A stretch of 64,000 bases of DNA, taken from the IMG/VR virus record IMGVR_UViG_2675903433_000022. One strand, 5' to 3'. The notes beneath the pieces are model-generated. The model was not told the DNA's origin, did no database searches, and saw only the letters and a list, made by a program, of their open reading frames with translations. Of this stretch, positions 2,179-23,459 are shown in pieces. Source of the stretch: a virus (taxonomy: Duplodnaviria; Heunggongvirae; Uroviricota; Caudoviricetes). Both the position numbers and the translations under genes were made by a program. The number at the start of each line of letters is the position of its first letter. Within the stretch, counting starts at the first letter, position 1.

Positions 2179-2381
2179 GTGATATGGATAAAAATACCCC
2201 TGCTTACTGGAGTTTATCACTTGATACCGAATGCCCAAAATGCGGTCACAATTTCGATCTGCTTTGTGATGCTGATTTTTGGGAGTTTTCTGGAGCGAAA
2301 CAGGCGTGTGAAGAAATAGAAGGTTACGAAACATGCTGTCCAGAATGCAACCATGAATTTAAAACAGATTTTGTGTATTGA
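2175..2381 (+). CDS. Small zinc-ribbon protein
   Basis: Two CxxC pairs (CPKCGH...CCPECNH); GTG at 2175 overlaps upstream stop, alternative ATG at 2184. Confidence 0.5.
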   Translation: MSDMDKNTPAYWSLSLDTECPKCGHNFDLLCDADFWEFSGAKQACEEIEGYETCCPECNHEFKTDFVY

Positions 2382-2391
2382 AGCATAGCAA

Positions 2392-2913: not shown

Positions 2914-3098
2914 GACAACTTTACACCATTGTTATCGCATTTGTTTTTGGTTTTGGCGGCATTTGCGTCGGTGAGAGTGCTGGCTATAACCGTGGATTAA
3001 GTGAAGGAGTTGCTATCAGCAAGGGGGATAAGTGGGATTGTGCTTACTCATACGTGACTGGATTCCTTATGTGTGATCGAACCCCAAAATATAAGTAG
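2910..3098 (+). CDS. Small membrane protein
   Basis: 62 aa, hydrophobic N-terminal segment IVIAFVFGFGGICVG; ATGA overlap with upstream stop. Confidence 0.45.
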   Translation: MRQLYTIVIAFVFGFGGICVGESAGYNRGLSEGVAISKGDKWDCAYSYVTGFLMCDRTPKYK

Positions 3099-3107
3099 AG
3101 GCTATCA

Positions 3108-3812
3108 ATGACCACCTTTACCAAAGAACAGTTAATCTCCCATGCACGCGAAAGCGTTAGTTATCTGGAAAACTTGAAAGGACGTGTTAGCAAAGAAGGT
3201 GCGGACTGCAAAGTTGTTATTGAGATGGTTGCACGAGATCTAAAACTGGCTCGAATTGCACTGACCTCACTTGAGACAAAACCAATAGGTGCATTCCACA
3301 TTGCAGAACAGCAAGTTGACGGTACAAGTGACTACATCAAGGATGGAGAGTGGCCTATTGATAATGGGACAATTGAAGTATACGCCGCCCCTCCAGTGCC
3401 AGTAGTACCGGAAGAAAAACCAATGCCTAATCCTCTTAGCATGTACGCGGTTGATGCTGTTGCCGCTATTGCAGAGGTGAGAGGCTGGAACGCCTGTCGT
3501 GCCGCTATGCTTCAGAGTCAAGATAATTGCATTAAGGATGGTTGGATAAGCTGTAGTGAGCGAATGCCTGTAATCGGCGAGCTAAATTGGAGAACTGGTT
3601 TTCCTTTGCTGATTACGTGTGAGATCGGCGTTATACCAGCTTATTACGGCTTTGTGAGCGTTAATGGGGATAAGCATTATGGTTTTATGGAAAGTTTTAA
3701 ATACGGAGACGATCGCGGCGGCCATCCTAAAACTAATGAATATGGTCTGATTAGCAATGTCACACACTGGATGCCGCTACCAGAACCTCCGCAGGAGTCG
3801 AAGAGTGAATAA
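3108..3812 (+). CDS. Hypothetical protein (paralogous N-terminus)
   Basis: 234 aa; MTTFTKEQLI start shared with the 2392 product. Confidence 0.6.
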   Translation: MTTFTKEQLISHARESVSYLENLKGRVSKEGADCKVVIEMVARDLKLARIALTSLETKPIGAFHIAEQQVDGTSDYIKDGEWPIDNGTIEVYAAPPVPVVPEEKPMPNPLSMYAVDAVAAIAEVRGWNACRAAMLQSQDNCIKDGWISCSERMPVIGELNWRTGFPLLITCEIGVIPAYYGFVSVNGDKHYGFMESFKYGDDRGGHPKTNEYGLISNVTHWMPLPEPPQESKSE

Positions 3813-4026
3813 AGCAGAGTTATTTCAGAAAATATCGGCTCTCGCGACTGAATGCCACGCTATAGCATCTGAGCTTGATGTTGGCGATGAACGAACCGAG
3901 ATGTTCGAAATATACAGTGTGCTGCGCAATCTCTGTCGGCGTGGCTACGCCACTCAAGTAGGGCGAATGACTAACCCACTACTCTCATCCTGTGATGAGG
4001 ATGACTCGGATGAGGATGACGAATGA
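3805..4026 (+). CDS. Small protein with acidic C-terminal tail
   Basis: GTG at 3805 preceded by AGGAG at 3793-3797; C-terminus DEDDSDEDDE; track ORF from 3757 overlaps upstream gene. Confidence 0.4.
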   Translation: MNKAELFQKISALATECHAIASELDVGDERTEMFEIYSVLRNLCRRGYATQVGRMTNPLLSSCDEDDSDEDDE

Positions 4027-4877
4027 TGCATAAATCAGTAGCCGGTGAGTTTCAGAAGGAAGTCGATAATACTACCGTTCTATTGGACGATATTTTAAGC
4101 ATTCTCGCGCTGCTTGAGGCTGGCGATTGGTCAGAACATTGCACTAAAACAGAGCTAGGCGGTCGGCTTGAAAGAGAGATTACACGACTTATTGGTGATG
4201 CGCAGGAAGCTACAGTCACTAGTTATGAGTTAATCGCTGAAGCCTGGCGTTTGATGGATGGACAAGATCCTAAAACCAGCGATTGGCATAGCAAGGCTTC
4301 GAAGTATTTAAATTCCAATAGGGTAGAAAAAGTTGATGATGTGAAACCGAAGCCAGTAGATCACGGTTTCCGCGATAACTGCGAATGCTCTAGTTGCCAG
4401 ACCACGGCCCGTATTTGTTCCGAATTGACAGATAAGTCCAGCCTAATCTACGAAGTTAATGTAGGCGGTAATACATGGGTCGAATGCACAAGAGCTGCAT
4501 ACGTAAGAGCAAAAGACAAGGGTGAATTAACCAGAGTTGTTACCCATCACCCAAATAATGAGCTTAAAGATCACCAGATTCGAGAACTAGTGAACGAGTT
4601 GCGGGATATTGCGGTTACGTATCACGGAACGCAGCAATTGCGGGAGAAAATTGCCAGAGCAGTGAACAACTCGCTCAAAGGTGGACAATCCCAACCGAAA
4701 CGTATACGAATTACACATATAGGTGAAAACGGAACAGAAATCCCCCAATTTTCTGTTGGGGACATCTTTGATGTACATGGAGAAGAGTTTGGTGAGCCTC
4801 ACATCACTATGCCTAGTGGCCATGTTTACTGGCTAAGAGCTATGGAGAAATATGGTGATAAATGGGAAGTGTTATGA
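4023..4877 (+). CDS. Hypothetical protein
   Basis: 284 aa; ATGA-coupled start. Confidence 0.6.
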   Translation: MMHKSVAGEFQKEVDNTTVLLDDILSILALLEAGDWSEHCTKTELGGRLEREITRLIGDAQEATVTSYELIAEAWRLMDGQDPKTSDWHSKASKYLNSNRVEKVDDVKPKPVDHGFRDNCECSSCQTTARICSELTDKSSLIYEVNVGGNTWVECTRAAYVRAKDKGELTRVVTHHPNNELKDHQIRELVNELRDIAVTYHGTQQLREKIARAVNNSLKGGQSQPKRIRITHIGENGTEIPQFSVGDIFDVHGEEFGEPHITMPSGHVYWLRAMEKYGDKWEVL

Positions 4878-5415
4878 GGGATGCGAAGTTATGACCAAAT
4901 TTGGAAAGCTGGAAGCTCATTTGCTGACTCGTAACTACCGCCATGATATACACCCATATAGACAGTGGATTGATGAAAGCGAAGGAGTTGTTACATTCCC
5001 TCTATACAGGTTTGATGGGATGTTGGCCGGGTATCAGACATACAGACCAGGCGCTCCTAAGCAGCATAGCAATCCGAAGATGGCCCGGTATTTCACACGA
5101 GCGCACGGCAGACAGCTACTATGGGGTACCTATCTTCCTTTAAAAGATGGACCGATATGGATAACTGAGTCGATTTTTAAAAGTGCAGCAGTGCACAACG
5201 CGGGCGGAAATTCGTGGGCGCTGTTAGGCTCGACTTTCTCAGCAGGATTACGTCGTCAACTGGCAATGCTGCCGTATGACTTTCGTGTAATAGGTGACAA
5301 TGATGCGGCTGGCGAATCACTTGTGAAGTCTTTCGGAAAAGGTTTTGTGGCACCGGATCTTGACGAGCTACAACCACATGAAGTGTCTAATTTGATTTTT
5401 AGCCATAGCCAATAA
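4852..5415 (+). CDS. Hypothetical protein
   Basis: Track ORF; alternative ATG at 4891 with GAGGGA RBS. Confidence 0.55.
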   Translation: MVINGKCYEGCEVMTKFGKLEAHLLTRNYRHDIHPYRQWIDESEGVVTFPLYRFDGMLAGYQTYRPGAPKQHSNPKMARYFTRAHGRQLLWGTYLPLKDGPIWITESIFKSAAVHNAGGNSWALLGSTFSAGLRRQLAMLPYDFRVIGDNDAAGESLVKSFGKGFVAPDLDELQPHEVSNLIFSHSQ

Positions 5416-5431
5416 GTATCACTTCTCCATT

Positions 5432-5452
5432 AAGGCCACAACTAGTGGCCTT
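5432..5452 (+). terminator. Stem-loop aaggccacaactagtggcctt at end of early operon
   Basis: Perfect inverted repeat immediately followed by the AAACAAtTTGTTT palindrome. Confidence 0.5.
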
Positions 5453-5465
5453 AAACAATTTGTTT
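5453..5465. promoter_or_regulatory. 13-bp palindrome AAACAAtTTGTTT (recurrent early-region motif)
   Basis: One of at least 11 intergenic copies read in the sequence. Confidence 0.45.
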
Positions 5466-5538
5466 TCTACGTTTTCTTATTTGAGAAAATCACGTTGTTG
5501 GCAGCTCATAGGCTTGTTGTTATACATAGCTGTATAGA

Positions 5539-5895
5539 TTATGAGCGTAAATTATTAGCGGATTTTAAGCCATATTCACCGTTATAGTAATTACTCGCGT
5601 TCCATTCATTGGGAAGCTCTTGTCTGTCCAATGTATAGTGGCGCACGATGTAACGACCTGCATCTTCTTCGAGGTACAGGCGGACATAGCCAATGTGAAT
5701 TACCGGTATGGGCGGCGTTCGTATTGCATAGATGTCGCGGAGATATACCGGTAGCTCGACAAATGCATCAGGTGCATCTGTGATGCTCGTTTTTTCACAG
5801 TATTCATATAACGCATCGTTGATATCGTTAAGGGATTCATGATCGTATATTTCCAGGTAATTACCCCGATCGCGATGGTACTCGATTTTAGCCAT
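5539..5895 (-). CDS. Hypothetical protein
   Basis: 118 aa, start adjacent to upstream stop (TGAATG on minus strand). Confidence 0.55.
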   Translation of the reverse strand: MAKIEYHRDRGNYLEIYDHESLNDINDALYEYCEKTSITDAPDAFVELPVYLRDIYAIRTPPIPVIHIGYVRLYLEEDAGRYIVRHYTLDRQELPNEWNASNYYNGEYGLKSANNLRS

Positions 5896-6480
5896 TCAAA
5901 ATCCCCTATTATCGTTTTGCATTTCTCTAATCCGGTCCAGAACAACTTCATGTTGGGCTTGGATAGCGGCTTTTTCGTTTTCAAGCCGGGCAATAGACTT
6001 CTCTAATTCTTTGCTGTACCAGGCAAGTTGGGTAAGGTTCATCCGGTTGTGATCGAGAGTTGGCGACACCTCGACGTGATCCCCTTCTTCCTGCCTTAAT
6101 GAGAAGAGATTCATCTCATCCCTTGAGGAAAATTCAGCAACAATTTCTTGTTGATGATCCGGTCGCTGCGGCATCCTTGCCAGTATAAATGGCGGTTCTA
6201 TTGAAAACATGAATGACGGTTTAGACCGTGTTTTGACCCATCTAGCTTGCTGTCTTTCGGCAAGTTCACAGGCTTCATCATAGTTATCTACAAAACCAAG
6301 CACGGATGGACGGTCCCACGCGCCACCATTCAGACAATAAACAACAATTTTCCCGTCAGGTTCTGTAACTCCATAGGGATGGTCCCACCAGGCGTCCAGC
6401 TGGGCTTTGGAGCGTTTCTCGTTAGGAGTGCAGTCAAAATTTTTGGGCAATGCAGGATCGAGAGGAATGCGGGCAGGCAT
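5896..6480 (-). CDS. Hypothetical protein
   Basis: 194 aa; RBS aaggaa 6 nt before ATG on minus strand. Confidence 0.55.
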   Translation of the reverse strand: MPARIPLDPALPKNFDCTPNEKRSKAQLDAWWDHPYGVTEPDGKIVVYCLNGGAWDRPSVLGFVDNYDEACELAERQQARWVKTRSKPSFMFSIEPPFILARMPQRPDHQQEIVAEFSSRDEMNLFSLRQEEGDHVEVSPTLDHNRMNLTQLAWYSKELEKSIARLENEKAAIQAQHEVVLDRIREMQNDNRGF

Positions 6481-6614
6481 GGCTAATTCCTTATTAATTG
6501 ATTAGTAACGAGGTTACGCTGATCCAGCGGTGATGAATAGTAGCAAAGCGCACAAAGTCATCAGAGGGGTTAAGACCCATAACGCGTTTGCACCAAAGGT
6601 GCATCTTTAATGTA

Positions 6615-6634
6615 TACTGTATGGATAAACAGTA
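6615..6634. promoter_or_regulatory. LexA (SOS) box tACTGTatggataaACAGta
   Basis: CTGT-N8-ACAG match to the SOS-box consensus TACTGTATATATATACAGTA, 19 nt upstream of the UmuD'-like start, overlapping a TATACT -10-like hexamer. Confidence 0.6.
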
Positions 6635-6652
6635 TTTTGAGGTGAAAACGCT

Positions 6653-7042
6653 ATGGGCTTCCCTTCTCCTGCGGCGGATTATGCTGAGAGCCGTATTTCT
6701 CTTGATCAGCAGATAATTAGACATCCTTCAGCGACCTACTTCATGAGGGCAGCTGATAGCCATCATCGTGAGGGAATATTACAGGGTGCATTGCTGGTGG
6801 TCGATTCCTCACTTACCCCGGTTGATGGTTCTCTGCTTGTATGCGCTCTGGATGGGGAATATCGCGTAAAAAGATACCGGAAGTATCCACGTCAGCATCT
6901 GGAGGATTTAAGAACCGGTAAGAAGGAAGCATTGCCAAAGGATGACGATGGATGCACGGGCAGCAATGCCGTGTTTGGTGTGATCACTCACATTATCAAC
7001 GACGCAAGAAGTGGCGAGTTTGATGATTGTCCCGTGATGTAG
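6653..7042 (+). CDS. UmuD'-like S24 peptidase-family protein, lacking the N-terminal arm
   Basis: Begins MGFPSPAADY, matching UmuD just after its self-cleavage site as remembered; conserved HPSATYF and VK motifs; RBS GAGGTGA; no umuC downstream. Confidence 0.7.
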   Translation: MGFPSPAADYAESRISLDQQIIRHPSATYFMRAADSHHREGILQGALLVVDSSLTPVDGSLLVCALDGEYRVKRYRKYPRQHLEDLRTGKKEALPKDDDGCTGSNAVFGVITHIINDARSGEFDDCPVM

Positions 7043-7079: not shown

Positions 7080-8180
7080 TCACACTGCGCGGAATGCGAT
7101 TTCGCCAGGTATTACTTCACCTTGCCAATACATTTGGGCAGCAACGCGATCTGCGAGGTCACGATAAATAGCCGTAAATTCGCTATCTGGACGACTAATA
7201 ACGGTTGGTGTTCCGTTATCCAGATCTTCACGAAGAGAGATATGAAGTGGCATTTGGCCTAACAACTGCGTGTTGTATTTCTCGGCCAGTTTCTGTGCGC
7301 CACCGGTGCCAAAAATTGGCTCGTGATGACCGCAGTTACTGCAAATATGCATACTCATGTTCTCGACAATACCGAGCACCGGAACCTCGACTTTCTCGAA
7401 CATCACAATGCCTTTTTTCGCATCGATCAACGCGATGTCCTGCGGCGTAGTTACCACAACCGCACCAGTTACAGGAATGTTCTGCGCCAGCGTCAATTGA
7501 ATATCACCAGTGCCCGGCGGCATATCGAGAACGAGATAGTCCAGATCAGGCCATAGAGTTTCCTGCAACATCTGCATTAACGCCTTGCTCGCCATCGGAC
7601 CACGCCACACCATCGCATTGTCGTCAGTTACCAGATAACCAATTGAATTGGTTGCCAGTCCATGAGACATAATCGGTGCCATGTGAGTACCGTCCGGTGA
7701 GGTTGGACGTTGGTTTTCCGCGCCAAGCATGGTTGGAATTGATGGCCCGTAGATATCGGCATCCAAAATACCAACTTTCGCACCTTCAGCAGCCAACGCC
7801 AGTGCCAGGTTTACCGCCGTGGAGGATTTACCAACGCCGCCCTTGCCTGAGCTGACGGCGATAATGTTCTTAACGCCATTAATGCCTGGTTGGTTTTTGA
7901 CGCGCTTAAGCGTGGCAATGTTGTACGACAGCTTCCAGTCGATAGCCTTTGCGCCAGTGATACGGAGCAGATCACCACTACATTGCTCTTTCAGGTCTTC
8001 AAAAGGCTTATTCCACACGAAAGGCATGATTAGTTCGACATGCAGTGTGTCATCCATCAACGCAACATGGTGTAACGCTTTAAGCGTAGTCAGGTTGTGT
8101 TTCAGGGTTGGGTGCTGAAAATTAGCCAGCGTACCGGCTACCATTGCTCTCAGGGCATCCGGCGATTTGGACTCGCTCAT
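7080..8180 (-). CDS. apbC: Fe-S cluster carrier ATPase ApbC/Mrp
   Basis: 366 aa; SSGKGGVGKSSTAVNLALALA Walker A, CSNCGHHEPIFG motif; ortholog-level similarity to enterobacterial Mrp; divergent from metG as in enterobacterial chromosomes. Confidence 0.9.
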   Translation of the reverse strand: MSESKSPDALRAMVAGTLANFQHPTLKHNLTTLKALHHVALMDDTLHVELIMPFVWNKPFEDLKEQCSGDLLRITGAKAIDWKLSYNIATLKRVKNQPGINGVKNIIAVSSGKGGVGKSSTAVNLALALAAEGAKVGILDADIYGPSIPTMLGAENQRPTSPDGTHMAPIMSHGLATNSIGYLVTDDNAMVWRGPMASKALMQMLQETLWPDLDYLVLDMPPGTGDIQLTLAQNIPVTGAVVVTTPQDIALIDAKKGIVMFEKVEVPVLGIVENMSMHICSNCGHHEPIFGTGGAQKLAEKYNTQLLGQMPLHISLREDLDNGTPTVISRPDSEFTAIYRDLADRVAAQMYWQGEVIPGEIAFRAV

Positions 8181-8337
8181 CCCGTCTCCTTTATTTTAAT
8201 TTGCGCAATTGTCGCCTTGTAGTGTACTCCAGCTACGGCATTTAATCATTTATGAGAAATGCTGTTATCACATGGCAGACATAAGGCCATTTTGTTACTA
8301 TCAAGCCCCTTTTCACTACAAAGAAGTAATGCCTACT

Positions 8338-10371
8338 ATGACCCAAGTCGCGAAGAAAATTCTGGTGACGTGCGCGCTGCCGTACGCTAACGGCTCAATC
8401 CACCTCGGCCATATGCTGGAGCACATCCAGGCTGATGTCTGGGTTCGTTACCAGCGAATGCGCGGCCACGAGGTTAATTTCATCTGTGCCGACGATGCCC
8501 ACGGTACGCCGATCATGCTGAAAGCACAGCAGCTTGGTATCACACCGGAGCAGATGATTGGCGAAATGAGTCAGGAACACCAGACTGATTTCGCAGGCTT
8601 TAACATCAGCTATGACAACTATCACTCGACGCACAGCGAAGAGAACCGTCAGTTGTCTGAGCTTATCTATACTCGCCTGAAAGAGAACGGTTTTATTAAA
8701 AATCGTACCATCTCTCAGCTGTACGACCCGGAAAAAGGCATGTTCCTGCCGGACCGTTTTGTAAAAGGCACCTGCCCTAAATGTAAAGCGCCAGATCAAT
8801 ACGGCGATAACTGTGAAGTCTGCGGCGCGACTTACAGCCCGACTGAACTGATCGAGCCGAAATCGGTAGTTTCTGGTGCTACGCCGGTAATGCGTGATTC
8901 CGAACACTTCTTCTTTGATCTGCCTTCTTTCAGCGAAATGTTGCAGGCATGGACCCGCAGCGGTGCGTTGCAGGAGCAGGTGGCAAACAAAATGCAGGAG
9001 TGGTTTGAATCTGGCCTGCAACAGTGGGATATCTCCCGTGACGCACCTTACTTCGGTTTTGAAATTCCGAACGCGCCGGGCAAATATTTCTACGTCTGGC
9101 TGGACGCGCCGATTGGCTACATGGGTTCCTTCAAGAATCTGTGCGACAAGCGCGGTGATACCACCAGCTTCGATGAATACTGGAAGAAAGACTCCACCGC
9201 CGAGCTGTACCACTTCATCGGTAAAGATATTGTTTACTTCCACAGCCTGTTCTGGCCTGCCATGCTGGAAGGCAGCAACTTCCGCAAGCCGACCAACCTG
9301 TTTGTTCATGGCTATGTGACGGTGAACGGCGCAAAGATGTCCAAGTCTCGCGGCACCTTTATTAAAGCCAGCACCTGGCTGAATCATTTTGACGCTGACA
9401 GCCTGCGTTACTACTACACTGCGAAACTCTCTTCGCGCATTGATGATATCGATCTCAACCTGGAGGATTTCGTTCAGCGCGTGAATGCCGATATCGTGAA
9501 CAAAGTGGTTAACCTGGCCTCCCGTAATGCAGGCTTTATCAACAAGCGTTTTGACGGCGTGCTGGCAAGCGAACTGGCTGACCCGCAACTGTACAAAACC
9601 TTTACTGATGCCGCTGAAGTGATTGGTGAAGCATGGGAAAGCCGCGAATTTGGTAAAGCGATTCGTGAAATCATGGCGCTGGCTGATCTGGCTAACCGCT
9701 ATGTCGATGAACAGGCTCCGTGGGTGGTGGCGAAGCAGGAAGGACGCGATGCCGATCTGCAGGCGATTTGCTCTATGGGCATTAACCTGTTCCGCGTGCT
9801 GATGACGTACCTGAAACCGGTACTGCCGAAACTGACTGAACGTGCAGAAGCATTCCTGAATACAGAACTGACCTGGGATGGTATCCAGCAACCGCTGCTG
9901 GGCCATAAAGTGAATCCGTTCAAGGCACTGTATAACCGTATCGATATGAAACAGGTGGAAGCACTGGTGGAAGCATCCAAAGAAGAAGTGAAAGCCACAG
10001 CTGCACCGGTAACTGGCCCACTGGCTGACGACCCGATTCAGGAAACCATCACCTTTGACGACTTCGCCAAAGTTGACCTGCGTGTGGCGCTGATTGAAAA
10101 CGCGGAGTTTGTCGAAGGTTCTGACAAACTGCTTCGCCTGACGCTGGATCTCGGTGGTGAAAAGCGTAATGTCTTCTCAGGCATCCGTTCCGCTTATCCA
10201 GATCCACAGGCACTGATTGGTCGTCACACCATTATGGTGGCTAACCTGGCTCCGCGTAAAATGCGCTTCGGTATCTCTGAAGGCATGGTGATGGCTGCTG
10301 GCCCCGGCGGGAAAGATATCTTCCTGTTAAGCCCGGATGCTGGTGCTAAACCTGGCCACCAGGTTAAGTAA
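8338..10371 (+). CDS. metG: Methionyl-tRNA synthetase
   Basis: 677 aa from [29 protein letters not shown] (HIGH motif), KMSKS present, C-terminal tRNA-binding domain; track ORF 8209 is an upstream in-frame extension. Confidence 0.95.
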
Positions 10372-15254: not shown

Positions 15255-15263
15255 CTGAGAAGA

Positions 15264-15285
15264 GGGCCAGAAACGGCCCTTTCTC
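15264..15285 (+). terminator. Rho-independent terminator
   Basis: gggccagaaacggccc hairpin plus T-rich tail; the hairpin itself contains the GAAACGGCC core. Confidence 0.55.
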
Positions 15286-15303
15286 TATAGCCACCAGCTG
15301 CCG

Positions 15304-15385
15304 CAGGGAAATTTTCAGAAACGGCGAGGAACGCATTCATGAGCCGACGGGAAACGGCCAGGATTTTTTCGGGAAACGGCTGCAT
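15304..15385. repeat. Tandem GGGAAACGGC-core repeats, family 2 (second locus)
   Basis: Cores at 15306, 15319, 15350, 15372. Confidence 0.45.
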
Positions 15386-15870
15386 TCGCCTTTGTGTAGA
15401 AAAAAACATCGGGAAGCTGGTGGAATCCAACCAGCGGTTGTCGGACAGGTGAGCGGGGAAAATTATGATGACTTTCGTCGCCTGAGACATCCAGATTTCT
15501 TTCGTAGCGTAATCACATACGTGATTAAGTGGTGTGATTATGTGAAAAATCACGCGCACATAATACGCGAGCGGATACGGAACAAAACAAAATGCCGATC
15601 CGCGCCGACAATTAAACGCGGACACATAGCAAGAATAAAAGCCAATGATTAACCATACACCATAACGCAATATAACGCGATTTAAGCGCGTTAATGCGCT
15701 AAGTAATGGGTATGTACTGGTAAGGATATAAAAGCGCGTCTATGGCGTTATTTTGGCGCTTATTTTTATGTTGTTGGCTTGAGTCAAAGACAATAAAAAA
15801 AGCGCCATCATTGGCGCGTTATGGTGGAAGTATTGGAAACGAAAAAAGCGCCCATAGTGGGCGCTCGATT

Positions 15871-16372: not shown

Positions 16373-17023
16373 TTACGCTTTGAAAGCATCAGCTAAATAA
16401 TTGTAGAAATCATTTTTAATGAAGCGATATTGCTGAGTACCAGCTTTCGCACTCCCAGCTCCTTTGACTTTTTCAACAAGTCCAAGACGTTCGCAAAGAT
16501 TGATCAACTGGTTGGCTTGAGTATAGCCAGCGTCCAATTTAATTTCACACGCTTTTTTAGCTTCATTCATTAAATCGAAAACAGCGCCATTGGTGAACGT
16601 GTCGATCTCGTCGTTAATCATATCGATTAAAGCGAATACACGAGATCCAGACATATCAGCGATGGAATAAACGCATTTACCAGATTTAATTGATTTAACC
16701 AGATAAACCAGTTTTTCCAGAGAATAACTATTAGTCATTGCATCACGGAAAAATACTTCTGGCGCTTGTTTGCTTGCTTTAATCGCATAGTAGAAAACAG
16801 AGCATAATTTTTCGTCTTCAACAGCGTTTACAACGTTGTTGATGAAGTAAGCAAGTTTAGTGGTCGCAGCTTGCATATTTGCTTTGTCTGCTTTAGTGTG
16901 CGTACCATTTTTATAATGTTCGTTATATGTTTGAGTTGCCAGATCTGCTTTTTCGCGCAGTTCATCGGATACAATGGAAGCAGCTTCAATGATGGATTTT
17001 TTAGAAATGATAATGTTAGCCAT
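16373..17023 (-). CDS. Hypothetical protein in AT-rich island
   Basis: 216 aa; RBS aaggaaaaattatc; locally low GC. Confidence 0.6.
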   Translation of the reverse strand: MANIIISKKSIIEAASIVSDELREKADLATQTYNEHYKNGTHTKADKANMQAATTKLAYFINNVVNAVEDEKLCSVFYYAIKASKQAPEVFFRDAMTNSYSLEKLVYLVKSIKSGKCVYSIADMSGSRVFALIDMINDEIDTFTNGAVFDLMNEAKKACEIKLDAGYTQANQLINLCERLGLVEKVKGAGSAKAGTQQYRFIKNDFYNYLADAFKA

Positions 17024-17306
17024 GATAATTTTTCCTTATGTAAATTTAAAATTTATTGTCGTTAGCGTCTTCGCTTTCGACGAGTTCAATTATCGATACA
17101 CGAAAAAAGATTGCAAGTGTTTTTTTAAAATTTTTTGCAGGGATGAAAGTCCTAGAAATAAAAGCGAGATCGTCGAAGGTGTTCCCTAAATAAATAATCG
17201 ATTCCGACTTTCGACCTTATATATATTTAGATTATTTGATTTATAGATATAAAGAAGTGATGTGAAAAATAATAACCGGACTTAGCCGGTTATTAACCTT
17301 ATAGAT

Positions 17307-17615
17307 TTATTGAACAGACTCTACAGCCTTACGATTGGTGTCAAATAGCGCATCAACGAACTGTGCCGATGACTCGCTAGATTCGCAATCCAACATTGCC
17401 CGTTCTTCATTTGCCACTTTCTTACACAGTTCCACATTCTCACCTATCGCTTTTCCTGCTTTTACGGCTGCCGAAAATTGATACATGCAAACTGATACAT
17501 TCTGAGACGTTGAGCACACGTCATTCATCAGCGACTGAATGACAGGCTTATAGTCCATTGCATTTGCCGCAACTGAGCAAAGTAAAAATAATGGTGGTAA
17601 CAATATCGATTTCAT
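17307..17615 (-). CDS. Small secreted (signal-peptide) protein
   Basis: N-terminus MKSILLPPLFLLCSVAANA resembles a Sec signal peptide; several Cys in the mature part. Confidence 0.55.
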   Translation of the reverse strand: MKSILLPPLFLLCSVAANAMDYKPVIQSLMNDVCSTSQNVSVCMYQFSAAVKAGKAIGENVELCKKVANEERAMLDCESSESSAQFVDALFDTNRKAVESVQ

Positions 17616-17618
17616 AAC

Positions 17619-18143
17619 TCAAAAAGGCAAAATTCGCTCAACCCAATCGAACAAAACAACTATTTTTCTACCGTTCTCGACACGTAGTGTAACCTGACAA
17701 GCATCTGCGCCTGCTGACACTCCCTCAATTTCACGGCCATCCGCCATGTACACCCTTATAGATTTGTTTGCTTTGTAGGCTTGGTTGCAAATTGCAAAAA
17801 AATCGCGGCGTGATGGCCGATTATCGACATAATCAGGGTGAACTGTTAGTCGACCTTTGAAATCGTGAGCGATACTGTCAACCACACCTGATTCAATTGT
17901 ACTAATGCGTTCAAGTGGGAGCCTTATACGATTTTCTTTATCAAAAGGGGCTGGGCAAAGGTCAACTTTGTTACGAGATGGCATGAGGCCATAAACGTAC
18001 ATGCAAAACGCCTGGCCATCTTCGAGAGTGACCCTTACAGGAATTTGTTCTCTGCGCCAGAACATCAGTAGTTTTTCAACGTTAGTGTAATCTCGCGGCC
18101 AGAGTTCAGCTTGGATACCGTAGGTAATATCTTTGGTTGTCAT
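17619..18143 (-). CDS. Hypothetical protein
   Basis: Start MTTKD directly after the upstream stop; track ORF to 18221 overlaps the upstream gene. Confidence 0.5.
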   Translation of the reverse strand: MTTKDITYGIQAELWPRDYTNVEKLLMFWRREQIPVRVTLEDGQAFCMYVYGLMPSRNKVDLCPAPFDKENRIRLPLERISTIESGVVDSIAHDFKGRLTVHPDYVDNRPSRRDFFAICNQAYKANKSIRVYMADGREIEGVSAGADACQVTLRVENGRKIVVLFDWVERILPF

Positions 18144-18147
18144 GTCA

Positions 18148-18612
18148 TCACAGAGTTGTTGGCAGAATGTCGATGTCACCAGAATTGCTGGTGAACACCC
18201 TGAACGCTTTTGTGTCTCCATTCTTCAGAGTCGTTTCTCGCTCTTGACGAGCGGGGTTTAGAGCACATAAACCTGCACCTTCAAGAGATGCACCCACAAT
18301 TAATTCTCCGGCATTTAAATGGAAAGTCGCTTTTTCGCCTGTAGCCAGTTTTGCGACAGTTTCGCCGTTGATGAAAATGGAAGCATCACATCCAGCTCCT
18401 ACAAAACCTGTGTCTCTCATTACCACCAACGTAGCTGGCGCTGCGCTTTGATACTTGAACACTTTGGCCTGCGGTGCTGGTTTGGCGTCATGGATTGATA
18501 TTGGGCGTGATTGGCACGCGGTAAGCATCAACACTGGTAACGTTAGTAGAGGGAGAAGCGAGTATTTCATGATAGTTTTAGAACAGAAAGTGAACAGTAT
18601 GGGAGACTTCAT
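18148..18612 (-). CDS. Putative lipoprotein
   Basis: Signal peptide with lipobox LTAC (…LPLLTLPVLMLTAC); RBS agggagacaaag before the first ATG; a shorter start at MKYSLL is possible. Confidence 0.6.
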   Translation of the reverse strand: MKSPILFTFCSKTIMKYSLLPLLTLPVLMLTACQSRPISIHDAKPAPQAKVFKYQSAAPATLVVMRDTGFVGAGCDASIFINGETVAKLATGEKATFHLNAGELIVGASLEGAGLCALNPARQERETTLKNGDTKAFRVFTSNSGDIDILPTTL

Positions 18613-18638
18613 CTTTGTCTCCCTAATTGATAGCGTGA

Positions 18639-18917
18639 TTATTTTAATCTGCTTAATAGCGTTTCGAGATCTTCCTTTGTCATATTAGAGTTCTCATAGA
18701 TACGCATGATTTTCTCACGAGTCTTAGCGGAAGCCCCGACAGAAGATATAACCTTGTCAAAGTCGGCCATTGTCAATTGTTCCAGAATGGTATTTATGAC
18801 TTCAGCCTTAGACATTTTGATATTTTTTTCTTTTAGTTTCACTTGAAACTTTCCAAGTTTGTCATTGGCCTTATCAGACAATGCTACCTGACAATAAGTT
18901 GTTTTCTTTTCACTCAT
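18639..18917 (-). CDS. Hypothetical small protein
   Basis: 92 aa, immediately downstream of the helicase gene on the minus strand. Confidence 0.5.
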   Translation of the reverse strand: MSEKKTTYCQVALSDKANDKLGKFQVKLKEKNIKMSKAEVINTILEQLTMADFDKVISSVGASAKTREKIMRIYENSNMTKEDLETLLSRLK

Positions 18918-18919
18918 AA

Positions 18920-20479
18920 CTAATCTCGTTTCAGAACTCCAAAATCGAATGCTCCATCAATAGGCAATACACCTTCTGCAAAGCCAGGTGTGGTGTCGAT
19001 GATGTGTTTTCGCTCATAAGAGTGAGACAACAGGTATTTGTTGCTAATGTCAATGAAATCAGTGATAAAACACACGTTTGCCTGATTTTTTTTGGCTCGT
19101 AAGCCACGACCGACACGCTGCCTCATTTCAACTTCTGCTTTCCCACCACCAGCAAGAATGACCGCACCAACGCTTGGCACATCAACACCGACATCCAGAA
19201 TAGTCGAGCCTATTAAAACATCTATTTCTCCAGACGCTAAACTGTTCAGCTTTGCTTGCCTTGTCGCCTGGTTAGATTCCCCATAGATGAAGTCAACTCT
19301 AAGGCCGGACTCTTTCATCATTTCCATCAGGATTTGCCCGTGGCGTTTAAGACGAACCAGAGTCATACAATTGAGAGAATGTTGCTTATAGAGCAATGCT
19401 TCGCGAACAATGGCCTCGTTACGTCCCAAATTATACACGATCCCCAACTGATAAGCCTTTTGGTAGGCGGTGCTCATACCAACTCTAAAATTGAGGTGTT
19501 TGTTGGCAAGTTCGGCCTTGATTCTGGCCTCGTCTGGCTTGTAGGCAACTTTATGATAAAGGAAGTACGGCTTTGCCAGAATGCCTCGATCAATCAGGTA
19601 CTTTTCTGTGACTTTAATTTCAATTCGCCCGGCCACCGCCATCAGGCGCATGTTGGCTTCCGTCGAATCCTTCATGAACGGCGTGGCTGTAAGCGCCAGA
19701 CGATAGTCTGCGTTCACACATAATCTGGCGATGTCATAGAAATTTGAGCCTGAAGACTCATGCGCCTCTTCCAGAATAAGAAGAGAGACACTTGAAAGGA
19801 AGCGTTTCACCAACTCCCGACGTTTGAGGTGGTAGCTTTTCTTATCTGGTGTTGCATCGCGTGGTGGTTCTTCGAGGAAACTTGCAAGAGTTTGAACTGT
19901 AGCGACGTTGATATGTCGTGATACCTGGAACTCACCCGAGCCAATGACTCCAACCTTTTGGTCTTTTAACCACGGTTCGCCATTTTCGGCGCGGTAGTCG
20001 ATGGATCTCTGGAAGTTTTCGGCCATTTGAAACATCAGAACAGAGCGGGTTGTTAAAAATAATGTCATTCGACCGATACGTGCAGCTGCTTTGCAGGCAA
20101 CGTTAGATTTCCCGCCACCAGTAGCGATCTGCGCAATCATCATTCCCTCTCGAACCAGTGTTTCCACAGTCTGATCCTGATACGCATAATCAGGATTGTA
20201 TGGGAATGGGTTAACCGCCGGATTTGGTTTACCAAGCGCCGGGGCTTTGTCTTTGCGGATATGAACACATTTGATGCCCGCCTTGTTCAAGTTCGCCGCT
20301 ACAGGCTTGGCAAAGCCAGCAGGGAACGAGTTTTTACTCCAGTTGAACATCGTGCTTGTGCCCTTCCAGTCGCCAGTCTCGACTTCGTAGCTCAACATTT
20401 GCTGCACCAGTTGCTTTACCTTGTCATCTGCGCCAGAAATAAGCGCATTTACTGCGTTAGATACAATCCGAACAGTCAT
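18920..20479 (-). CDS. Superfamily-2 DEAD/DEAH-box helicase
   Basis: Walker A IATGGGKS, DEAH-type LILEEAHE, TATP motif, C-terminal helicase motifs (GRGLR). Confidence 0.8.
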   Translation of the reverse strand: MTVRIVSNAVNALISGADDKVKQLVQQMLSYEVETGDWKGTSTMFNWSKNSFPAGFAKPVAANLNKAGIKCVHIRKDKAPALGKPNPAVNPFPYNPDYAYQDQTVETLVREGMMIAQIATGGGKSNVACKAAARIGRMTLFLTTRSVLMFQMAENFQRSIDYRAENGEPWLKDQKVGVIGSGEFQVSRHINVATVQTLASFLEEPPRDATPDKKSYHLKRRELVKRFLSSVSLLILEEAHESSGSNFYDIARLCVNADYRLALTATPFMKDSTEANMRLMAVAGRIEIKVTEKYLIDRGILAKPYFLYHKVAYKPDEARIKAELANKHLNFRVGMSTAYQKAYQLGIVYNLGRNEAIVREALLYKQHSLNCMTLVRLKRHGQILMEMMKESGLRVDFIYGESNQATRQAKLNSLASGEIDVLIGSTILDVGVDVPSVGAVILAGGGKAEVEMRQRVGRGLRAKKNQANVCFITDFIDISNKYLLSHSYERKHIIDTTPGFAEGVLPIDGAFDFGVLKRD

Positions 20480-20543
20480 AAACCTCTTTCCTTAGTGCCT
20501 TTTGTATGTTATTTGGCTATTATAATAAGTAAGTGATTACTTA

Positions 20544-21242
20544 GTGGATTGTAGCAATAAAATGGATGTAAAAATCACGATTTTGCAGGTTGATGTTGCC
20601 AACCTTCGCCCGAATACCTGGAACACCAATTCGGTTGGTGCGCAGAATTTTGAAAAACTGAAAGGTTCTATCGAAAAATTGGGCTTTTTTAAGCCAATTT
20701 TGGCTCGTGAACTTGAAGATGGATTTTTTGAAATCCTCGGCGGCGAACATCGCTGGCGTGCTGCTATTGAGCAAGGAATTTCAACGGTTCCGGTGCTTTC
20801 TGTGGGCAAAATTAGCGATGTCGTAGCTAAACAGATGTCACTGGTGGACAACGAGCGATACGGTGAAGACGACCAAATCGCATTGCAACGCTTCATTGAA
20901 GAAATTCAGTCAGAACTTGACTATCAACTGTCTGAAATCGCCCCGTATGACGACGAAATCTCGATGGTTTTAGCAAAAGAGGCGGCAATCGACCTTGAAG
21001 CACTGGAGGCGTTGTCTCGTGGTAGTGATGAGCCTGTCGATACCGACAAACGAGAGAAAACCGAACGTGTGGGGGCGGAACATCAGACCATGCGCTTCAA
21101 AGTAACTTTCGATGCGTCAGATCGTGTTGCAGAAACCATAAAAAACATCATCAAAGAGCAGGCTATTAACACCGGTAATGAAATGGAGAACGCTGGTGAG
21201 GCTCTGGTGTGGCTGGTCGACTACTACAAGGAGCGTATGTAA
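20544..21242 (+). CDS. ParB/Srx-fold (ParB N-terminal domain) protein 1
   Basis: VANLRPNTWNTN and GGEHRWRAA motifs typical of the ParB nuclease-like domain; start ambiguous (GTG 20544 or ATG 20562). Confidence 0.7.
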   Translation: MDCSNKMDVKITILQVDVANLRPNTWNTNSVGAQNFEKLKGSIEKLGFFKPILARELEDGFFEILGGEHRWRAAIEQGISTVPVLSVGKISDVVAKQMSLVDNERYGEDDQIALQRFIEEIQSELDYQLSEIAPYDDEISMVLAKEAAIDLEALEALSRGSDEPVDTDKREKTERVGAEHQTMRFKVTFDASDRVAETIKNIIKEQAINTGNEMENAGEALVWLVDYYKERM

Positions 21243-21910
21243 TGACCAAAAAGTTTGAAATCGTATATCGCGACCCGGCAGATCTTATTCCCTATGAGAT
21301 GAATGCCAAAAAGCATGATGAACAGCAGATCCGAGATCTGGCCGCAGCCATTAAAAAGCGCGGATTTGACCAGCCAATTACGGTCGATAAGAACGACGTA
21401 ATTATTACTGGCCACGGCCGCCGTGAGGCTGCAATTTTTGCTGGACTTGAGCGCGTGCCGGTTATTGTTCGCGATGATCTCAGTGATGACGAGGTTCGTG
21501 CGAAGCGCCTTGAAGATAACCGACTTGCCAGCATTGATTACGATGCAATTAAGCTACAGAAAGAGCTTGAGTCGCTTGTTCTGGACGATATCGAGGTTTT
21601 CGGCTTTGAAGAGCGTGAGTTGAATGTTCTCGTTGGCAGTATGACAGAAGAAATGGACACCGACTCGCTAGTTATCGATCTTGGCGAAGAAACTAAACGA
21701 CAGAAGGATGAACACACCGAGATCAGTCGCGAAGTTGCAGCGGAAGAAGTACGTGTTGTCGACGTATTGGGCTTTAAAACGCTTCCTGCTGGCTCTGCCA
21801 TTGTTGTTGGTGATTTGCTTGCCCACATGGAAGAAATGACGGGAGAGAGCGGGGTAGACGCATTTGTGGCATATGCGGAGAAGATCTCTTCCGGGGAGAT
21901 GGCTGCATGA
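21242..21910 (+). CDS. ParB/Srx-fold (ParB N-terminal domain) protein 2
   Basis: LIPYEMNAKKH...GHGRREAA motifs; ATG overlaps upstream stop (TAATG); RBS AAGGAG. Confidence 0.7.
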   Translation: MTKKFEIVYRDPADLIPYEMNAKKHDEQQIRDLAAAIKKRGFDQPITVDKNDVIITGHGRREAAIFAGLERVPVIVRDDLSDDEVRAKRLEDNRLASIDYDAIKLQKELESLVLDDIEVFGFEERELNVLVGSMTEEMDTDSLVIDLGEETKRQKDEHTEISREVAAEEVRVVDVLGFKTLPAGSAIVVGDLLAHMEEMTGESGVDAFVAYAEKISSGEMAA

Positions 21911-22572
21911 GCAAATACATCATCAACGTATCGTTTCAGACTCGCGTAAATAAAACCACGCGCACATTGGAAATCGCTGAGTCGTTCGGGCTTGGCCTGG
22001 ACGAAAAAGAGTGGACGCTTTACGACAATCTGGAGCTGGAAGTGAAGCAGGGCGATGTGGTGTACATCACCGGCCAATCCGGTTCCGGCAAATCCGTTGT
22101 GCTGCGCGAGTTGCAACGACAGATGAAGGATGAAGGGCTGTCTGTAGCCTCCATCGATGATTTTACCTTCGATAATGAGGTTAACGTCATCGATCAGTTG
22201 GGCAAAACGACCAGTGATGCGCTTGGGTTGTTATCTATGGCTGGTCTGAACGATGCATATCTGTTTGTTCGCAAGCCTTCTGAAATGTCAGACGGCCAGA
22301 AATATCGTCTCAAGATTGCCAAACTGATTGAGTCAGGCGCTAAAGTGTGGGCTGCTGACGAGTTCGGCGCTGTTCTCGACCGTGTAACCGCTCAGGTTGT
22401 GGCGTCTAACCTCCAGCGTGCCGCTCGAAAGGTTGGTGCGACGGTAATGGTGGCGACGACTCACGAAGACCTGAAGAACGCGCTGCGCCCGGATATGCAG
22501 ATCACCAAGCACTACAAAGAACGCGTGAAGGTGGAATATCACAATGGTAGTCATGATGAGGTCCATTCATGA
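21907..22572 (+). CDS. ABC-type ATPase (no transmembrane partner)
   Basis: Walker A GQSGSGKS, signature-like MSDGQKYRL, Walker B VWAADEF, H-loop TTHE; ATGA-coupled. Confidence 0.7.
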   Translation: MSKYIINVSFQTRVNKTTRTLEIAESFGLGLDEKEWTLYDNLELEVKQGDVVYITGQSGSGKSVVLRELQRQMKDEGLSVASIDDFTFDNEVNVIDQLGKTTSDALGLLSMAGLNDAYLFVRKPSEMSDGQKYRLKIAKLIESGAKVWAADEFGAVLDRVTAQVVASNLQRAARKVGATVMVATTHEDLKNALRPDMQITKHYKERVKVEYHNGSHDEVHS

Positions 22573-23459
22573 CGGACATCATCATTAAACGCTACCGCCC
22601 TGAAGAGTTTCCGCGTCATCTGGACTTTCTGGAGCGAATGACTGTTACAAAGGGAACTGTAGAGGACTGGCACGCTCTTAAGTCGCTTCACTACAAAACA
22701 GACGGCAAACCTTTCGCGCCAACTTACTATCGCTGCGAACTTGATGACCGTCTGGTGGGCGTCGTGGTTATGGCTTACCCGAAACTACTGTTGGCACCTC
22801 GCCACCGCATGTTTCCTAAGTTGAAACCAACCACTAATACCACCGTGGCTAACCAGTACTGGGGTCGGTACGTGAATAACAACTTTGCGGTGATCAGTCG
22901 CTCAGTTGTGGATACTCAGTATCGTGGCGTAGGCGTCTCTTATCGAATGATTAACCTGGTTAGCAGGATGCATGACCGGCCAATCATTGAGATCCAGTCC
23001 TCGATGAGCAAATACAATCCCTTCGCCATGAAAGCAGGGTTTAAGTTCATCCGCCCTGAGCGACCGAAGAGCTATGAAAGTGCACTGCGTGTATTCCAGC
23101 GCCATTTCCGTTCCGACCCGGGTGATAACGAGGCGATCGTCAAAGAGTTGTTCGCAATGAGCGAGTCTCGTCGTCGCCGTGCACTGCGTGATCTGGTGGC
23201 GGACTACCACAAGAACAGTTCCCTGGCAAAAGCTGGGCGGAATCGTGGCACTACGATTCAGGACATTGCCGACAGTCTGGTGGACGAGGCCAGCATTGTG
23301 AAGCTGCTCAAGGACATTCACAACCTGAGCTTTACGTCTCCGTTGTATGGTGTGTACCGAAACCCTGACTTTGGCCGTCGACTGCCTGACACGCTGCCAC
23401 TGCTGGCATTCGACAAACAACCTTTGGATAAACCGTTAGAAATTGCTTTACCGGCATAA
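22569..23459 (+). CDS. Hypothetical protein with GNAT-like acetyltransferase motif
   Basis: VVDTQYRGVGVSYRMINLV resembles GNAT motif A; ATGA-coupled to the ATPase gene. Confidence 0.5.
   Translation: MTDIIIKRYRPEEFPRHLDFLERMTVTKGTVEDWHALKSLHYKTDGKPFAPTYYRCELDDRLVGVVVMAYPKLLLAPRHRMFPKLKPTTNTTVANQYWGRYVNNNFAVISRSVVDTQYRGVGVSYRMINLVSRMHDRPIIEIQSSMSKYNPFAMKAGFKFIRPERPKSYESALRVFQRHFRSDPGDNEAIVKELFAMSESRRRRALRDLVADYHKNSSLAKAGRNRGTTIQDIADSLVDEASIVKLLKDIHNLSFTSPLYGVYRNPDFGRRLPDTLPLLAFDKQPLDKPLEIALPA

Follow-up and report, generated by a model that had tools for sequence, protein, structure and literature searches.

A helicase operon of SSU5-type phage-plasmids with accessory envelope genes and an orphan FljA-like core gene of predicted tandem Hfq-like fold

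The IMG/VR record IMGVR_UViG_2675903433_000022 is a caudoviral DNA of 64,000 nucleotides (nt), referred to here in its whole length as the window, and it carries on its minus strand a compact run of five genes between positions 17,307 and 20,479. In the order of reading they code for a superfamily 2 (SF2) helicase of 519 amino acids (aa), a 92-aa protein, a lipoprotein, a 174-aa protein of the FljA family and a 102-aa protein with a signal peptide (Table 1). The segment 15800-21000 shares 98.5% identity with Escherichia phage CMS-2020a, 95% with phage Cyrano (the pLF82 phage-plasmid) and about 80% with Salmonella phage SSU5, and the remainder of the window holds a large terminase gene together with typical SSU5-type genes. 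Because of these similarities we assign the window, as an E. coli member, to the SSU5/pHCM2/pMT1 supergroup of phage-plasmids that Pfeifer et al. described (PMC7969092). The operon is nothing out of the ordinary: it combines phage-plasmid backbone with moron-type cargo and has already been annotated gene by gene in SSU5, pHCM2 and pMT1. Two points we consider modestly new, namely that the FljA family is predicted to fold as a tandem of Hfq-like domains and that an orphan FljA-like gene, expressed in lysogeny, belongs to the core of enterobacterial phage-plasmids, also of those whose hosts are non-flagellated.

Table 1. Features of the helicase operon and of its surroundings in the window
Feature	Position	Strand	Remarks
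SF2 helicase, 519 aa	20479..18920	-	ResIII/DEAD/Helicase_C; backbone
92-aa protein, predicted cytoplasmic	18917..18639	-	phrog_1466; backbone
Lipoprotein, 154 aa (ATG 18612) or 140 aa (ATG 18570), slot 1	18612..18148	-	lipobox LTAC; phrog_890; accessory
FljA-family protein, 174 aa	18143..17619	-	PF03614; predicted tandem Hfq/Sm-like fold; core
Secreted protein, 102 aa, slot 2	17615..17307	-	Sec signal features; phrog_9536; accessory
Candidate -10 box, perfect TATAAT	20519..20524	-	40 nt upstream of helicase ATG; no good -35
Intrinsic terminator	17260..17295	-	10-bp stem TAATAACCGG/CCGGTTATTA, then TTTTT; starts 12 nt past last stop
Sigma-70-like promoter of the next, separate 216-aa gene	17089..17116	-	TTGCAA-16-GATAAT; marks downstream boundary
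216-aa protein gene	17023..16373	-	own conserved promoter
Two ParB_N-domain proteins, ABC-type ATPase, 296-aa protein with faint GNAT match	20544-23459		divergent from helicase
ApbC/Mrp Fe-S carrier ATPase	7080..8180	-	PF10609, E 2e-102
Methionyl-tRNA synthetase, full length, with tRNA-binding domain	8209..10371		PF09334, E 5e-166

The original prediction, made from the letters of the window, had described five minus-strand open reading frames (ORFs) at this place, with a DEAD/DEAH-type helicase at their head, and all of them were recovered at the same coordinates, the helicase with Pfam matches above the cut-offs. It had further described their stops and starts as overlapping or adjacent, of which the adjacency holds and the overlap does not. 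The distance from stop to start is 2 nt between the helicase and 92-aa genes, 26 nt from the 92-aa gene to the first ATG of the lipoprotein gene (68 nt if the ATG of SSU5 is taken), 4 nt between the lipoprotein and 174-aa genes and 3 nt from there to the 102-aa gene. The sole overlap comes from an over-long mechanical ORF of the 174-aa gene (200 aa, starting at 18221), whose 79 homologue clusters are mostly about 170-187 aa long. Shine-Dalgarno sequences are present before the helicase (AAGGAAAGAGG) and the first lipoprotein ATG (AGGGAG) only. The 92-aa, fljA-like and secreted-protein genes have none of their own and start 2-4 nt past the preceding stop, so that translational coupling would fit them. 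The Shine-Dalgarno sequence of the lipoprotein gene (GGGAGAC) and its first ATG can also pair with codons 2-4 (GTCTCCC) in a 7-bp hairpin at 18601-18623, whose folding free energy of -12.3 is non-significant against shuffled sequences.

Thirteen related enterobacterial loci were compared with the window, namely those of Cyrano and SSU5, four Klebsiella pneumoniae plasmids, pFra of Yersinia pestis, pHCM2 of Salmonella Typhi, one Buttiauxella and two Kluyvera elements, a metagenome-assembled genome (MAG) and a chromosomal remnant. Their constant order comprises the divergent ParB-ParB-ABC genes, followed by the helicase gene, the 92-aa gene, a first cargo position (slot 1), the FljA-like gene, a second cargo position (slot 2), the terminator and the 216-aa gene. 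We regard the five-gene arrangement as lying beyond chance, because the order of the helicase, 92-aa and 174-aa genes is constant in 13 of the 13 loci and because tblastn against PLSDB finds homologues of the helicase in 1002 plasmid records and of the FljA-like protein in 831. Identity to the window is 91-99% for the helicase, 84-97% for the 216-aa protein, 65-83% for the FljA-like protein and 52-86% for the 92-aa protein, in ranges that leave out two outliers, a divergent Klebsiella element (the plasmid of K. pneumoniae hvKP859) and a decayed chromosomal copy. The median ratio of non-synonymous to synonymous substitution rates (dN/dS) is 0.02 for the helicase, whose identity range covers 11 related loci, 0.07 for the 216-aa gene, 0.09 for the 92-aa gene and 0.12 for the lipoprotein gene. 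Helicase and FljA-like records run in parallel in the enterobacterial genera, with 346 and 341 in Klebsiella, 228 and 229 in Escherichia, 92 and 92 in Enterobacter, and 62 and 62 in Yersinia.

The two envelope genes behave differently from this backbone. Of the plasmid records, 421 have the lipoprotein and 259 the secreted protein, which amounts to about half and about a third of the related plasmids, respectively. Slot 1 is filled by the lipoprotein of the window in six loci, by a homologous lipoprotein on the opposite strand in two Klebsiella plasmids (28% identity, E 5e-18), by an unrelated 266-aa lipoprotein in Cyrano and by a signal-peptide protein among other genes in pNH25.3. Slot 2 is either empty or occupied by a secreted protein with four cysteines, and K. 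pneumoniae TH1 has a 99-aa analogue there. An alignment of eight elements shows that ATCTATAAGG and the terminator hairpin are nearly invariant directly after whichever gene is last, which points to precise insertion of the secreted gene between the fljA stop and the terminator. The homologues SSU5_124-121, pHCM2 and the Y. pestis plasmid pMT1/pFra keep the same order of helicase, 92-aa protein, lipoprotein and FljA-like protein before the same terminator, and their genes already bear the names 'DEAD/DEAH box helicase', 'lipoprotein' and 'putative repressor of phase 1 flagellin'. Compared with this SSU5-type order, the window element, like pHCM2, adds the secreted four-cysteine gene in slot 2.

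Given this distribution, we classify the helicase, 92-aa and FljA-like genes as core genes and the two envelope genes as accessory 'moron' cargo at fixed hot spots. The classification agrees with what is expected of morons, in that the cargo is variably present at a fixed site and lysogenic expression has been documented for the same-slot gene of Cyrano. The coupling of an intracellular helicase to envelope-targeted proteins had been singled out in the original prediction as an unusual combination, a view which the comparison does not bear out: the cargo is present in 421 and 259 records against 831-1002 for the backbone, and its slots are variable or inverted. The link between helicase and envelope appears positional and not functional, because the cargo is patchy and sits in two fixed slots that elsewhere hold other lipoproteins, an inverted copy or nothing.

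A decayed version of the block lies on an E. coli chromosome (CP125919, 385158-397682), where the helicase is recovered in three tblastn pieces and the 216-aa gene in two. Its FljA-like ORF is still full length (52% identity) and has many changes at otherwise conserved positions.

The helicase matches ResIII (55.1 bits, E 1.1e-14), DEAD (53.7 bits, E 2.7e-14) and Helicase_C (49.7 bits, E 4.9e-13) and corresponds to phrog_16, 'DNA helicase' (E 2.3e-93), from which we identify it as a DEAD/DEAH-type SF2 enzyme with both RecA-like motor domains. The closest relatives of solved structure are archaeal XPB (XPBII, 2e-12), RecG (3e-8) and UvsW of phage T4 (5.5e-8), and the likeness is confined to the motor domains. 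The annotators of Cyrano named the orthologue 'UvsW helicase'; residues 233-485 alone align with the UvsW structure 2oca, and XPB and RecG score equally well or better. No NCBIfam equivalog came near its cut-off score with the helicase, and the first 95 or so residues, the N-terminal domain for which a remote homology search had been proposed, have no relative in Pfam, PHROG or NCBIfam. The 92-aa protein (phrog_1466, E 5e-46) is encoded after the helicase in all related enterobacterial loci. A ribbon-helix-helix reading of this protein was considered and rejected, since a profile search of the PDB returned designed helical repeats alone and Pfam gave no match.

The same divergent layout of two ParB genes and an ABC gene facing a helicase and a small protein also exists in a 112-kb plasmid of Acinetobacter baumannii, whose helicase is 42% identical to that of the window and whose small protein is a possible distant counterpart of the 92-aa protein (21% identity in the alignment). 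In all, 153 Acinetobacter plasmids carry the helicase at about 42% identity and have no FljA-like gene, and none was found beside the helicase module of the 112-kb plasmid. The module of helicase and 92-aa protein appears old enough for Acinetobacter phage-plasmids to have it as well.

This conservation also bears on whether the five genes could work together as a single system, for instance in defence against phages or in exclusion, with the helicase sensing or processing foreign DNA and the envelope proteins serving as effectors or gatekeepers. Such a system could account for the tight spacing, the common terminator, the expression of the homologues in lysogens and the partial PADLOC matches of the helicase to PbeA (6.6e-23), type IV restriction and DpdF. 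However, these matches cover the generic SF2 motor alone, and no system-level match was obtained; the 92-aa protein has two chance-level PADLOC matches to unrelated models (E about 0.006-0.008), and the lipoprotein, the FljA-like protein and the secreted protein have none. Half or more of the helicase-bearing elements lack the lipoprotein or the secreted protein, the lipoprotein cassette is inverted or replaced in relatives, and the helicase is far more conserved than the cargo. Moreover, even in Acinetobacter it stands in a conserved block with ParB-like and ABC-ATPase genes. We consider a single functional system of five genes very improbable.

The sequence upstream of the helicase contains a perfect TATAAT, which we take as a candidate -10 element of the operon promoter; it was read directly, as our consensus scan requires both hexamers and did not report it. 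At the other end, the terminator hairpin (-12.6 kcal/mol, z -4.5; none of 200 shuffles folded as well) is nearly invariant in eight elements, whether the last gene is that of the FljA-like or of the secreted protein. The next gene, coding for a 216-aa protein with no relative in Pfam or the PDB, has a promoter in which conservation of the -10 TCGATAAT and the -35 CTTG extends over 14 loci, the most divergent one among them. That the five genes could be co-transcribed, as had been predicted, remains plausible: the window has no terminator between the 92-aa and lipoprotein genes, and the conserved terminator follows the last gene.

Published RNA-seq data of E. coli LF82, the natural host of Cyrano, cover the orthologous block in lysogens (PMC9928086 S1 Table). 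As log2(FPKM+5), where FPKM stands for fragments per kilobase per million reads, and as our mean over the two replicates, the values (in sequence for lysogeny broth, LB, overnight; without macrophages at 1 h and at 6 h; inside macrophages at 1 h and at 6 h) are 5.5, 7.5, 7.8, 8.3 and 7.3 for the helicase CYRAN_118; 6.8, 9.0, 9.9, 8.9 and 8.7 for the 92-aa homologue CYRAN_117; 4.8, 8.0, 9.2, 9.3 and 8.7 for the slot-1 lipoprotein CYRAN_115, which is not homologous to that of the window; 4.2, 7.2, 7.0, 8.1 and 8.0 for the FljA-like CYRAN_114; and 2.5, 2.8, 3.1, 3.7 and 5.6 for the 216-aa gene CYRAN_113. CYRAN_117 is the most highly transcribed gene of the block, and the authors count it among the lysogeny-expressed 'morons' (PMC9928086). 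Like the 216-aa gene, the ParB genes of Cyrano lie near the floor, in their case at about 2.3-5.2; the ParB/ABC genes are nearly silent in LF82, and the lytic cycle appears repressed in macrophages according to the authors (PMC9928086). Across the conserved terminator the transcript level falls from a log2 of 7-8 (CYRAN_114) to about 3 (CYRAN_113). This pattern indicates that the block belongs to the lysogenic programme and that transcription drops sharply at the terminator.

We regard a single transcript from helicase to terminator as the plausible and simplest reading of the window. Several observations speak against it and favour instead an autonomous moron cassette, in which the lipoprotein, fljA-like and secreted-protein genes have their own promoter and are parked behind an operon of helicase and 92-aa genes. 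SSU5, pFra and Kluyvera have a GC-rich hairpin and a run of T between the 92-aa and lipoprotein genes; the window itself has a weak promoter-like site at 18667..18638, which together with the strong Shine-Dalgarno sequence before ATG 18612 would fit a separate unit. In Cyrano, transcripts of the FljA-like gene exceed those of its upstream neighbour, so that it has a promoter of its own there, and the inverted lipoprotein gene of the Klebsiella plasmids likewise requires a separate fljA promoter. On the other hand, the window, unlike these SSU5-type relatives, has no terminator-like hairpin in a gap of just 26-68 nt. Its promoter-like site has a score of 9 of 12, and such sites are no commoner in the region than in shuffled sequence (16 against 10.1 +/- 3.2). 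An autonomous cassette is a possibility to which we give limited credence, and for the window we keep to the single transcript.

A comparison of the spacer between the 92-aa and lipoprotein genes with SSU5, pFra, Buttiauxella and the two Kluyvera elements showed the hairpin and the T-run in these relatives, together with a lipoprotein start 14 codons later; the lipoprotein gene of the window differs from theirs in its 5' end. The spacer between the terminator and the 216-aa gene (17023-17265) has a mean identity of 79% over eight elements and contains long invariant blocks such as AAATATATAAGG and TTTATTTAGGnAACACCTTCGA. A leader hairpin of the 216-aa gene (RTCG-AA-AGCR-loop-YGCT-AA-CGAY) displays two compensatory changes and three one-sided disruptions. 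This spacer could be a regulatory site and a candidate target of the FljA-like protein.

The 174-aa protein, left unnamed in the original prediction and in our view the most informative of the five, matches the Pfam family PF03614 (Flag1_repress, 'Repressor of phase-1 flagellin') over positions 1-170 of 170 with 281.7 bits (cut-off 24; E 2.5e-84), corresponds to phrog_1444 (E 2.7e-100) and is on these grounds classed as a cytoplasmic protein of the FljA family. The family is tiny, with only 29 clusters recovered by a profile search of 1.84 billion representative proteins. One of them, represented by P0081, has 1141 sequences under the name 'phase 1 flagellin gene repressor FljA [Salmonella enterica]'; over 171 aa, P0081 and the window protein are 36% identical (E 1e-37). 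Salmonella FljA, with 179 aa, is of similar length and has PF03614 in full in common with the window protein, as well as the N-terminal motif D-I-[ST]-Y-G-x-x-A-E-x-W-P-R-D-Y and the C-terminal DWV-RI.

An AlphaFold2 model built from 29 family members is confident, with a predicted local distance difference test score of 91.5 and a predicted template modelling score of 0.88, and consists of a helix and five strands, occurring twice. Aligned as profiles, the two halves stay in register (hhalign E 9.3e-5), and the C-terminal half alone matches Pfam Hfq (PF17209) with 19.1 bits (E 0.001), below the cut-off of 27. The model displays the N-terminal helix followed by a five-stranded bent beta-sheet that is characteristic of Hfq/Sm proteins. 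We conclude that the FljA-like protein is predicted to adopt a double Hfq/Sm-like fold, which differs from Hfq in having two Sm units per chain instead of one and a sequence identity of 14-22%; we speculate that a trimer would mimic the Hfq hexamer. A fold search of the BFVD returned single-domain Hfq-like phage proteins alone and no full-length match, we found no solved structure of the FljA family, and a non-exhaustive literature search gave no paper tying FljA to the Sm fold. Such a double fold would agree with FljA acting post-transcriptionally on fliC mRNA, which PMC2652032 summarises.

Divergent FljA-like proteins are encoded on the K. pneumoniae hvKP859 plasmid and in the clusters P0097, P0099 and P0102, several of them on Klebsiella contigs of about 108-112 kb. 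They keep the two Sm-like halves and the DWV motif and have lost the N-terminal WPRDY; the WPRDY region may be the part tied to fliC recognition. SSU5-type loci were also assigned to a 'Bacillota bacterium' MAG, and an FljA-like fragment (P0079) to Gemella morbillorum; both Gram-positive assignments are probably artefacts of binning or contamination.

Among enterobacterial phage-plasmids, the FljA-like gene and the helicase go together at about 1:1. Klebsiella accounts for 341 of the plasmids with the gene and Yersinia for 62, and each of the Yersinia records opened was of Y. pestis. The gene is full length in 822 of the 831 plasmid copies, and its dN/dS is about 0.1 (median 0.12) in comparisons that include Klebsiella and Y. 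pestis copies, which points to purifying selection in these plasmids as well. To our knowledge, the Klebsiella and Y. pestis hosts make no flagella. Every characterised fljA that we know of is accompanied by a flagellin gene, as in fljBA and the z66 locus. In contrast to Salmonella fljA and the fljA(z66) of pBSSB1, the gene studied here is a phage-plasmid core gene with no linked flagellin gene or invertase; a tblastn search with E. coli FliC of the window and of the related loci that it covered gave no flagellin-like match, and the annotated neighbours are the helicase, the lipoprotein and hypothetical genes.

In view of its family and fold, we infer that the FljA-like protein is a lysogeny-expressed RNA-binding regulator. 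Its main target is probably an mRNA of the element itself or another host RNA rather than host fliC, because the gene is kept in non-flagellated hosts, has no flagellin gene nearby, is carried by a motile LF82 lysogen, and has the position and conservation of a backbone gene. The alternative would be a translational repressor of host fliC, which would switch off flagellin in lysogens and so spare them its cost, escape recognition by TLR5 or shut out flagellum-dependent phages, with the envelope proteins as part of the same surface-remodelling package. The full-length PF03614 match and the resemblance to named FljA proteins, including the WPRDY and DWV-RI motifs, are in line with this possibility, as is the transcription of the homologue in lysogens. 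Certain points count against a main target other than fliC: the N-terminal motif is common to genuine FljA, the gene is absent from the Acinetobacter relatives, the family being restricted to the ancestrally flagellated Enterobacterales, and we found no RNA target of the FljA-like protein. In addition, FljA(z66), the product of a linear plasmid, acts at the post-transcriptional level, and motile E. coli to which this plasmid is transferred becomes non-motile (PMC2652032). With this precedent and the shared WPRDY motif, some action on fliC in flagellated hosts is possible.

Nevertheless, repression of fliC does not explain why the gene stays intact under a low dN/dS in so many Klebsiella and Yersinia plasmids, nor why it is never linked to a flagellin gene. 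LF82 carries a transcribed copy 78% identical to that of the window, yet its motility is fliC-dependent and exceeds that of K-12, and the strain is hyper-flagellated (PMC10809763); this motility was measured in LB, the condition of lowest CYRAN_114 expression, a circumstance that lessens its weight. A search of the window with the fliC leader (the 5' untranslated region of MG1655 fliC) gave chance 9-12-mers alone (best E 0.27). The S. Typhi strains that carry pHCM2 are presumably typed H:d, which would also be at odds with repression. Taken together, we consider it unlikely that silencing of host fliC is the main function, and we found no paper linking SSU5 or pHCM2 to an fljA function. With some hesitation we go one step further and suggest that the FljA family might consist of tandem Sm (Hfq-like) RNA-binding proteins that are primarily at home in the SSU5-type phage-plasmid backbone, where they would be expressed in lysogeny and regulate the genes of the element post-transcriptionally or hijack host RNA regulation, and of which the Salmonella repressor would be a domesticated offshoot; we hold this origin to be rather doubtful.

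In the product of slot 1, a hydrophobic stretch, LLPLLTLPVLML, precedes the lipobox LTAC, whose cysteine is residue 33 (or 19 from the shorter start). The lipobox, already named in the original prediction, is borne out by a cysteine that is invariant in 14 homologues; a distant Klebsiella homologue has VAGC. These features support its prediction as a signal peptidase II substrate. According to the usual sorting rule, glutamine at position +2 directs a lipoprotein to the outer membrane, and since the window protein has glutamine there, an outer-membrane location would be expected. The mature part is all-beta with two cysteines. The protein corresponds to phrog_890 'lipoprotein' (E 1.2e-51), its match to DUF2846 is weak (17.8 bits, below the cut-off), its AlphaFold model is poor (local distance difference score 57) and a sequence search of the PDB gave no match; its relatives are almost entirely on contigs of about 100-120 kb. 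The homologue in pHCM2 (3570-3923) is annotated from an internal GTG (117 aa, VSVADAKP) and as a result lacks signal peptide and lipobox.

The 102-aa ORF of slot 2 starts MKSILLPPLFLLCSVAANA|MDYK and has the n-, h- and c-regions MK, SILLPPLFLLCSV and AANA|M, with small residues at -3 and -1. Within its family, which has homologues in Klebsiella and pHCM2, the h-regions diverge, and an AXA site (ANA, VSA, ASA) is kept before the invariant mature start MDYKPVIQSLMNDVC; this is the pattern of real signal peptide evolution, in agreement with the signal peptide originally proposed. The match to phrog_9536 (E 5.8e-55) begins at residue 20. The protein is supported as a predicted Sec-dependent secreted substrate of signal peptidase I, and the four cysteines of its 83-aa mature part (C34, C43, C64, C77), at conserved spacing, fit periplasmic disulfides, so that it would probably be a periplasmic protein with two of them. 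The gene lies directly after the fljA-like gene in all three carrying loci that were opened (the window, L013 and pHCM2), and the 99-aa protein in slot 2 of K. pneumoniae TH1 is unrelated in sequence and has a signal peptide and identical cysteine spacing.

The original prediction had suggested that the envelope proteins act in superinfection exclusion. Known proteins of this function include Llp of T5 and Cor of phi80 and N15. Like these and other phage morons, both cargo proteins are small, envelope-targeted, encoded by a temperate element, patchy among close relatives and inserted at fixed points. Unlike Llp and Cor, they have no sequence or profile similarity to any characterised exclusion protein, and searches of Pfam, PADLOC and the PDB revealed no similarity to known exclusion lipoproteins or defence proteins. 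SSU5 reportedly uses the lipopolysaccharide core, which a lipoprotein would not obviously mask. Still, the patchy spread, the divergent alleles and the richness of slot 1 in lipoproteins fit functions in lysogenic conversion or exclusion, and a role in superinfection exclusion is plausible.

Elsewhere in the window, a host-like housekeeping pair at 7080-10371 consists of an ApbC/Mrp gene and, divergent from it, a methionyl-tRNA synthetase gene; annotations of Cyrano, PhiR41_1 and over 150 E. coli plasmids (about 110 kb each) show the same pair, and in LF82 lysogens the ApbC-like gene is expressed and the synthetase gene barely so. The region 1987-7032 is, at the nucleotide level, about 92% identical to parts of phage P1 (EaA, a LexA-regulated function and an error-prone repair / S24 peptidase gene) and reads as a mosaic junction of SSU5-type and P1-type phage-plasmids. 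At 15255-15870, about 600 nt have no convincing ORF and contain several terminator-like hairpins, one of them bidirectional (15846-15866), and a similar non-coding gap exists in SSU5 and Klebsiella plasmids. Scans of the window with Rfam (at the gathering threshold) and for tRNA genes gave no match.

Altogether, we find it fairly probable that the five genes form a composite, leftward unit expressed in lysogeny, which combines a helicase backbone, an FljA-like core regulator with a main target other than fliC, and envelope cargo under one promoter; co-transcription, protein localisation, RNA binding and the identity of the target are inferred. The backbone would consist of an XPB/UvsW-like SF2 helicase and its translationally coupled 92-aa partner, transcribed divergently from the ParB-ParB-ABC-ATPase cluster. 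All five genes would be read from the promoter upstream of the helicase, with transcription ending at the hairpin 17295-17260 and with the 92-aa, fljA-like and secreted-protein genes translated by coupling. The FljA-like protein, with its two Hfq/Sm-like domains, would bind RNA and repress either the translation of an mRNA or its stability, in the way that Salmonella FljA acts on fliC mRNA, and the main target of the protein would be an mRNA of the element or another host RNA. The lipoprotein of slot 1 and the periplasmic protein of slot 2 would be moron genes that change the envelope of the lysogen, for which the exclusion of other phages is the most obvious use.

A helicase operon with envelope genes requires no new biology, as accessory genes at the hot spots of temperate phages suffice to explain it. 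Phage-plasmids of the SSU5/pHCM2/pMT1 type are nevertheless common in clinical E. coli, Klebsiella, Salmonella and Y. pestis, and all enterobacterial elements examined contain the orphan FljA-like gene, which has so far been labelled a 'transcriptional regulator' and otherwise ignored. Its predicted double Hfq fold, its transcription in lysogens and its retention in hosts without flagella constitute a testable lead on the control of lysogeny or the manipulation of host RNA, and they also bear on the origin of the phase-variation repressor of Salmonella. The two cargo slots, in turn, offer a ready place to seek exclusion or envelope-modifying functions.

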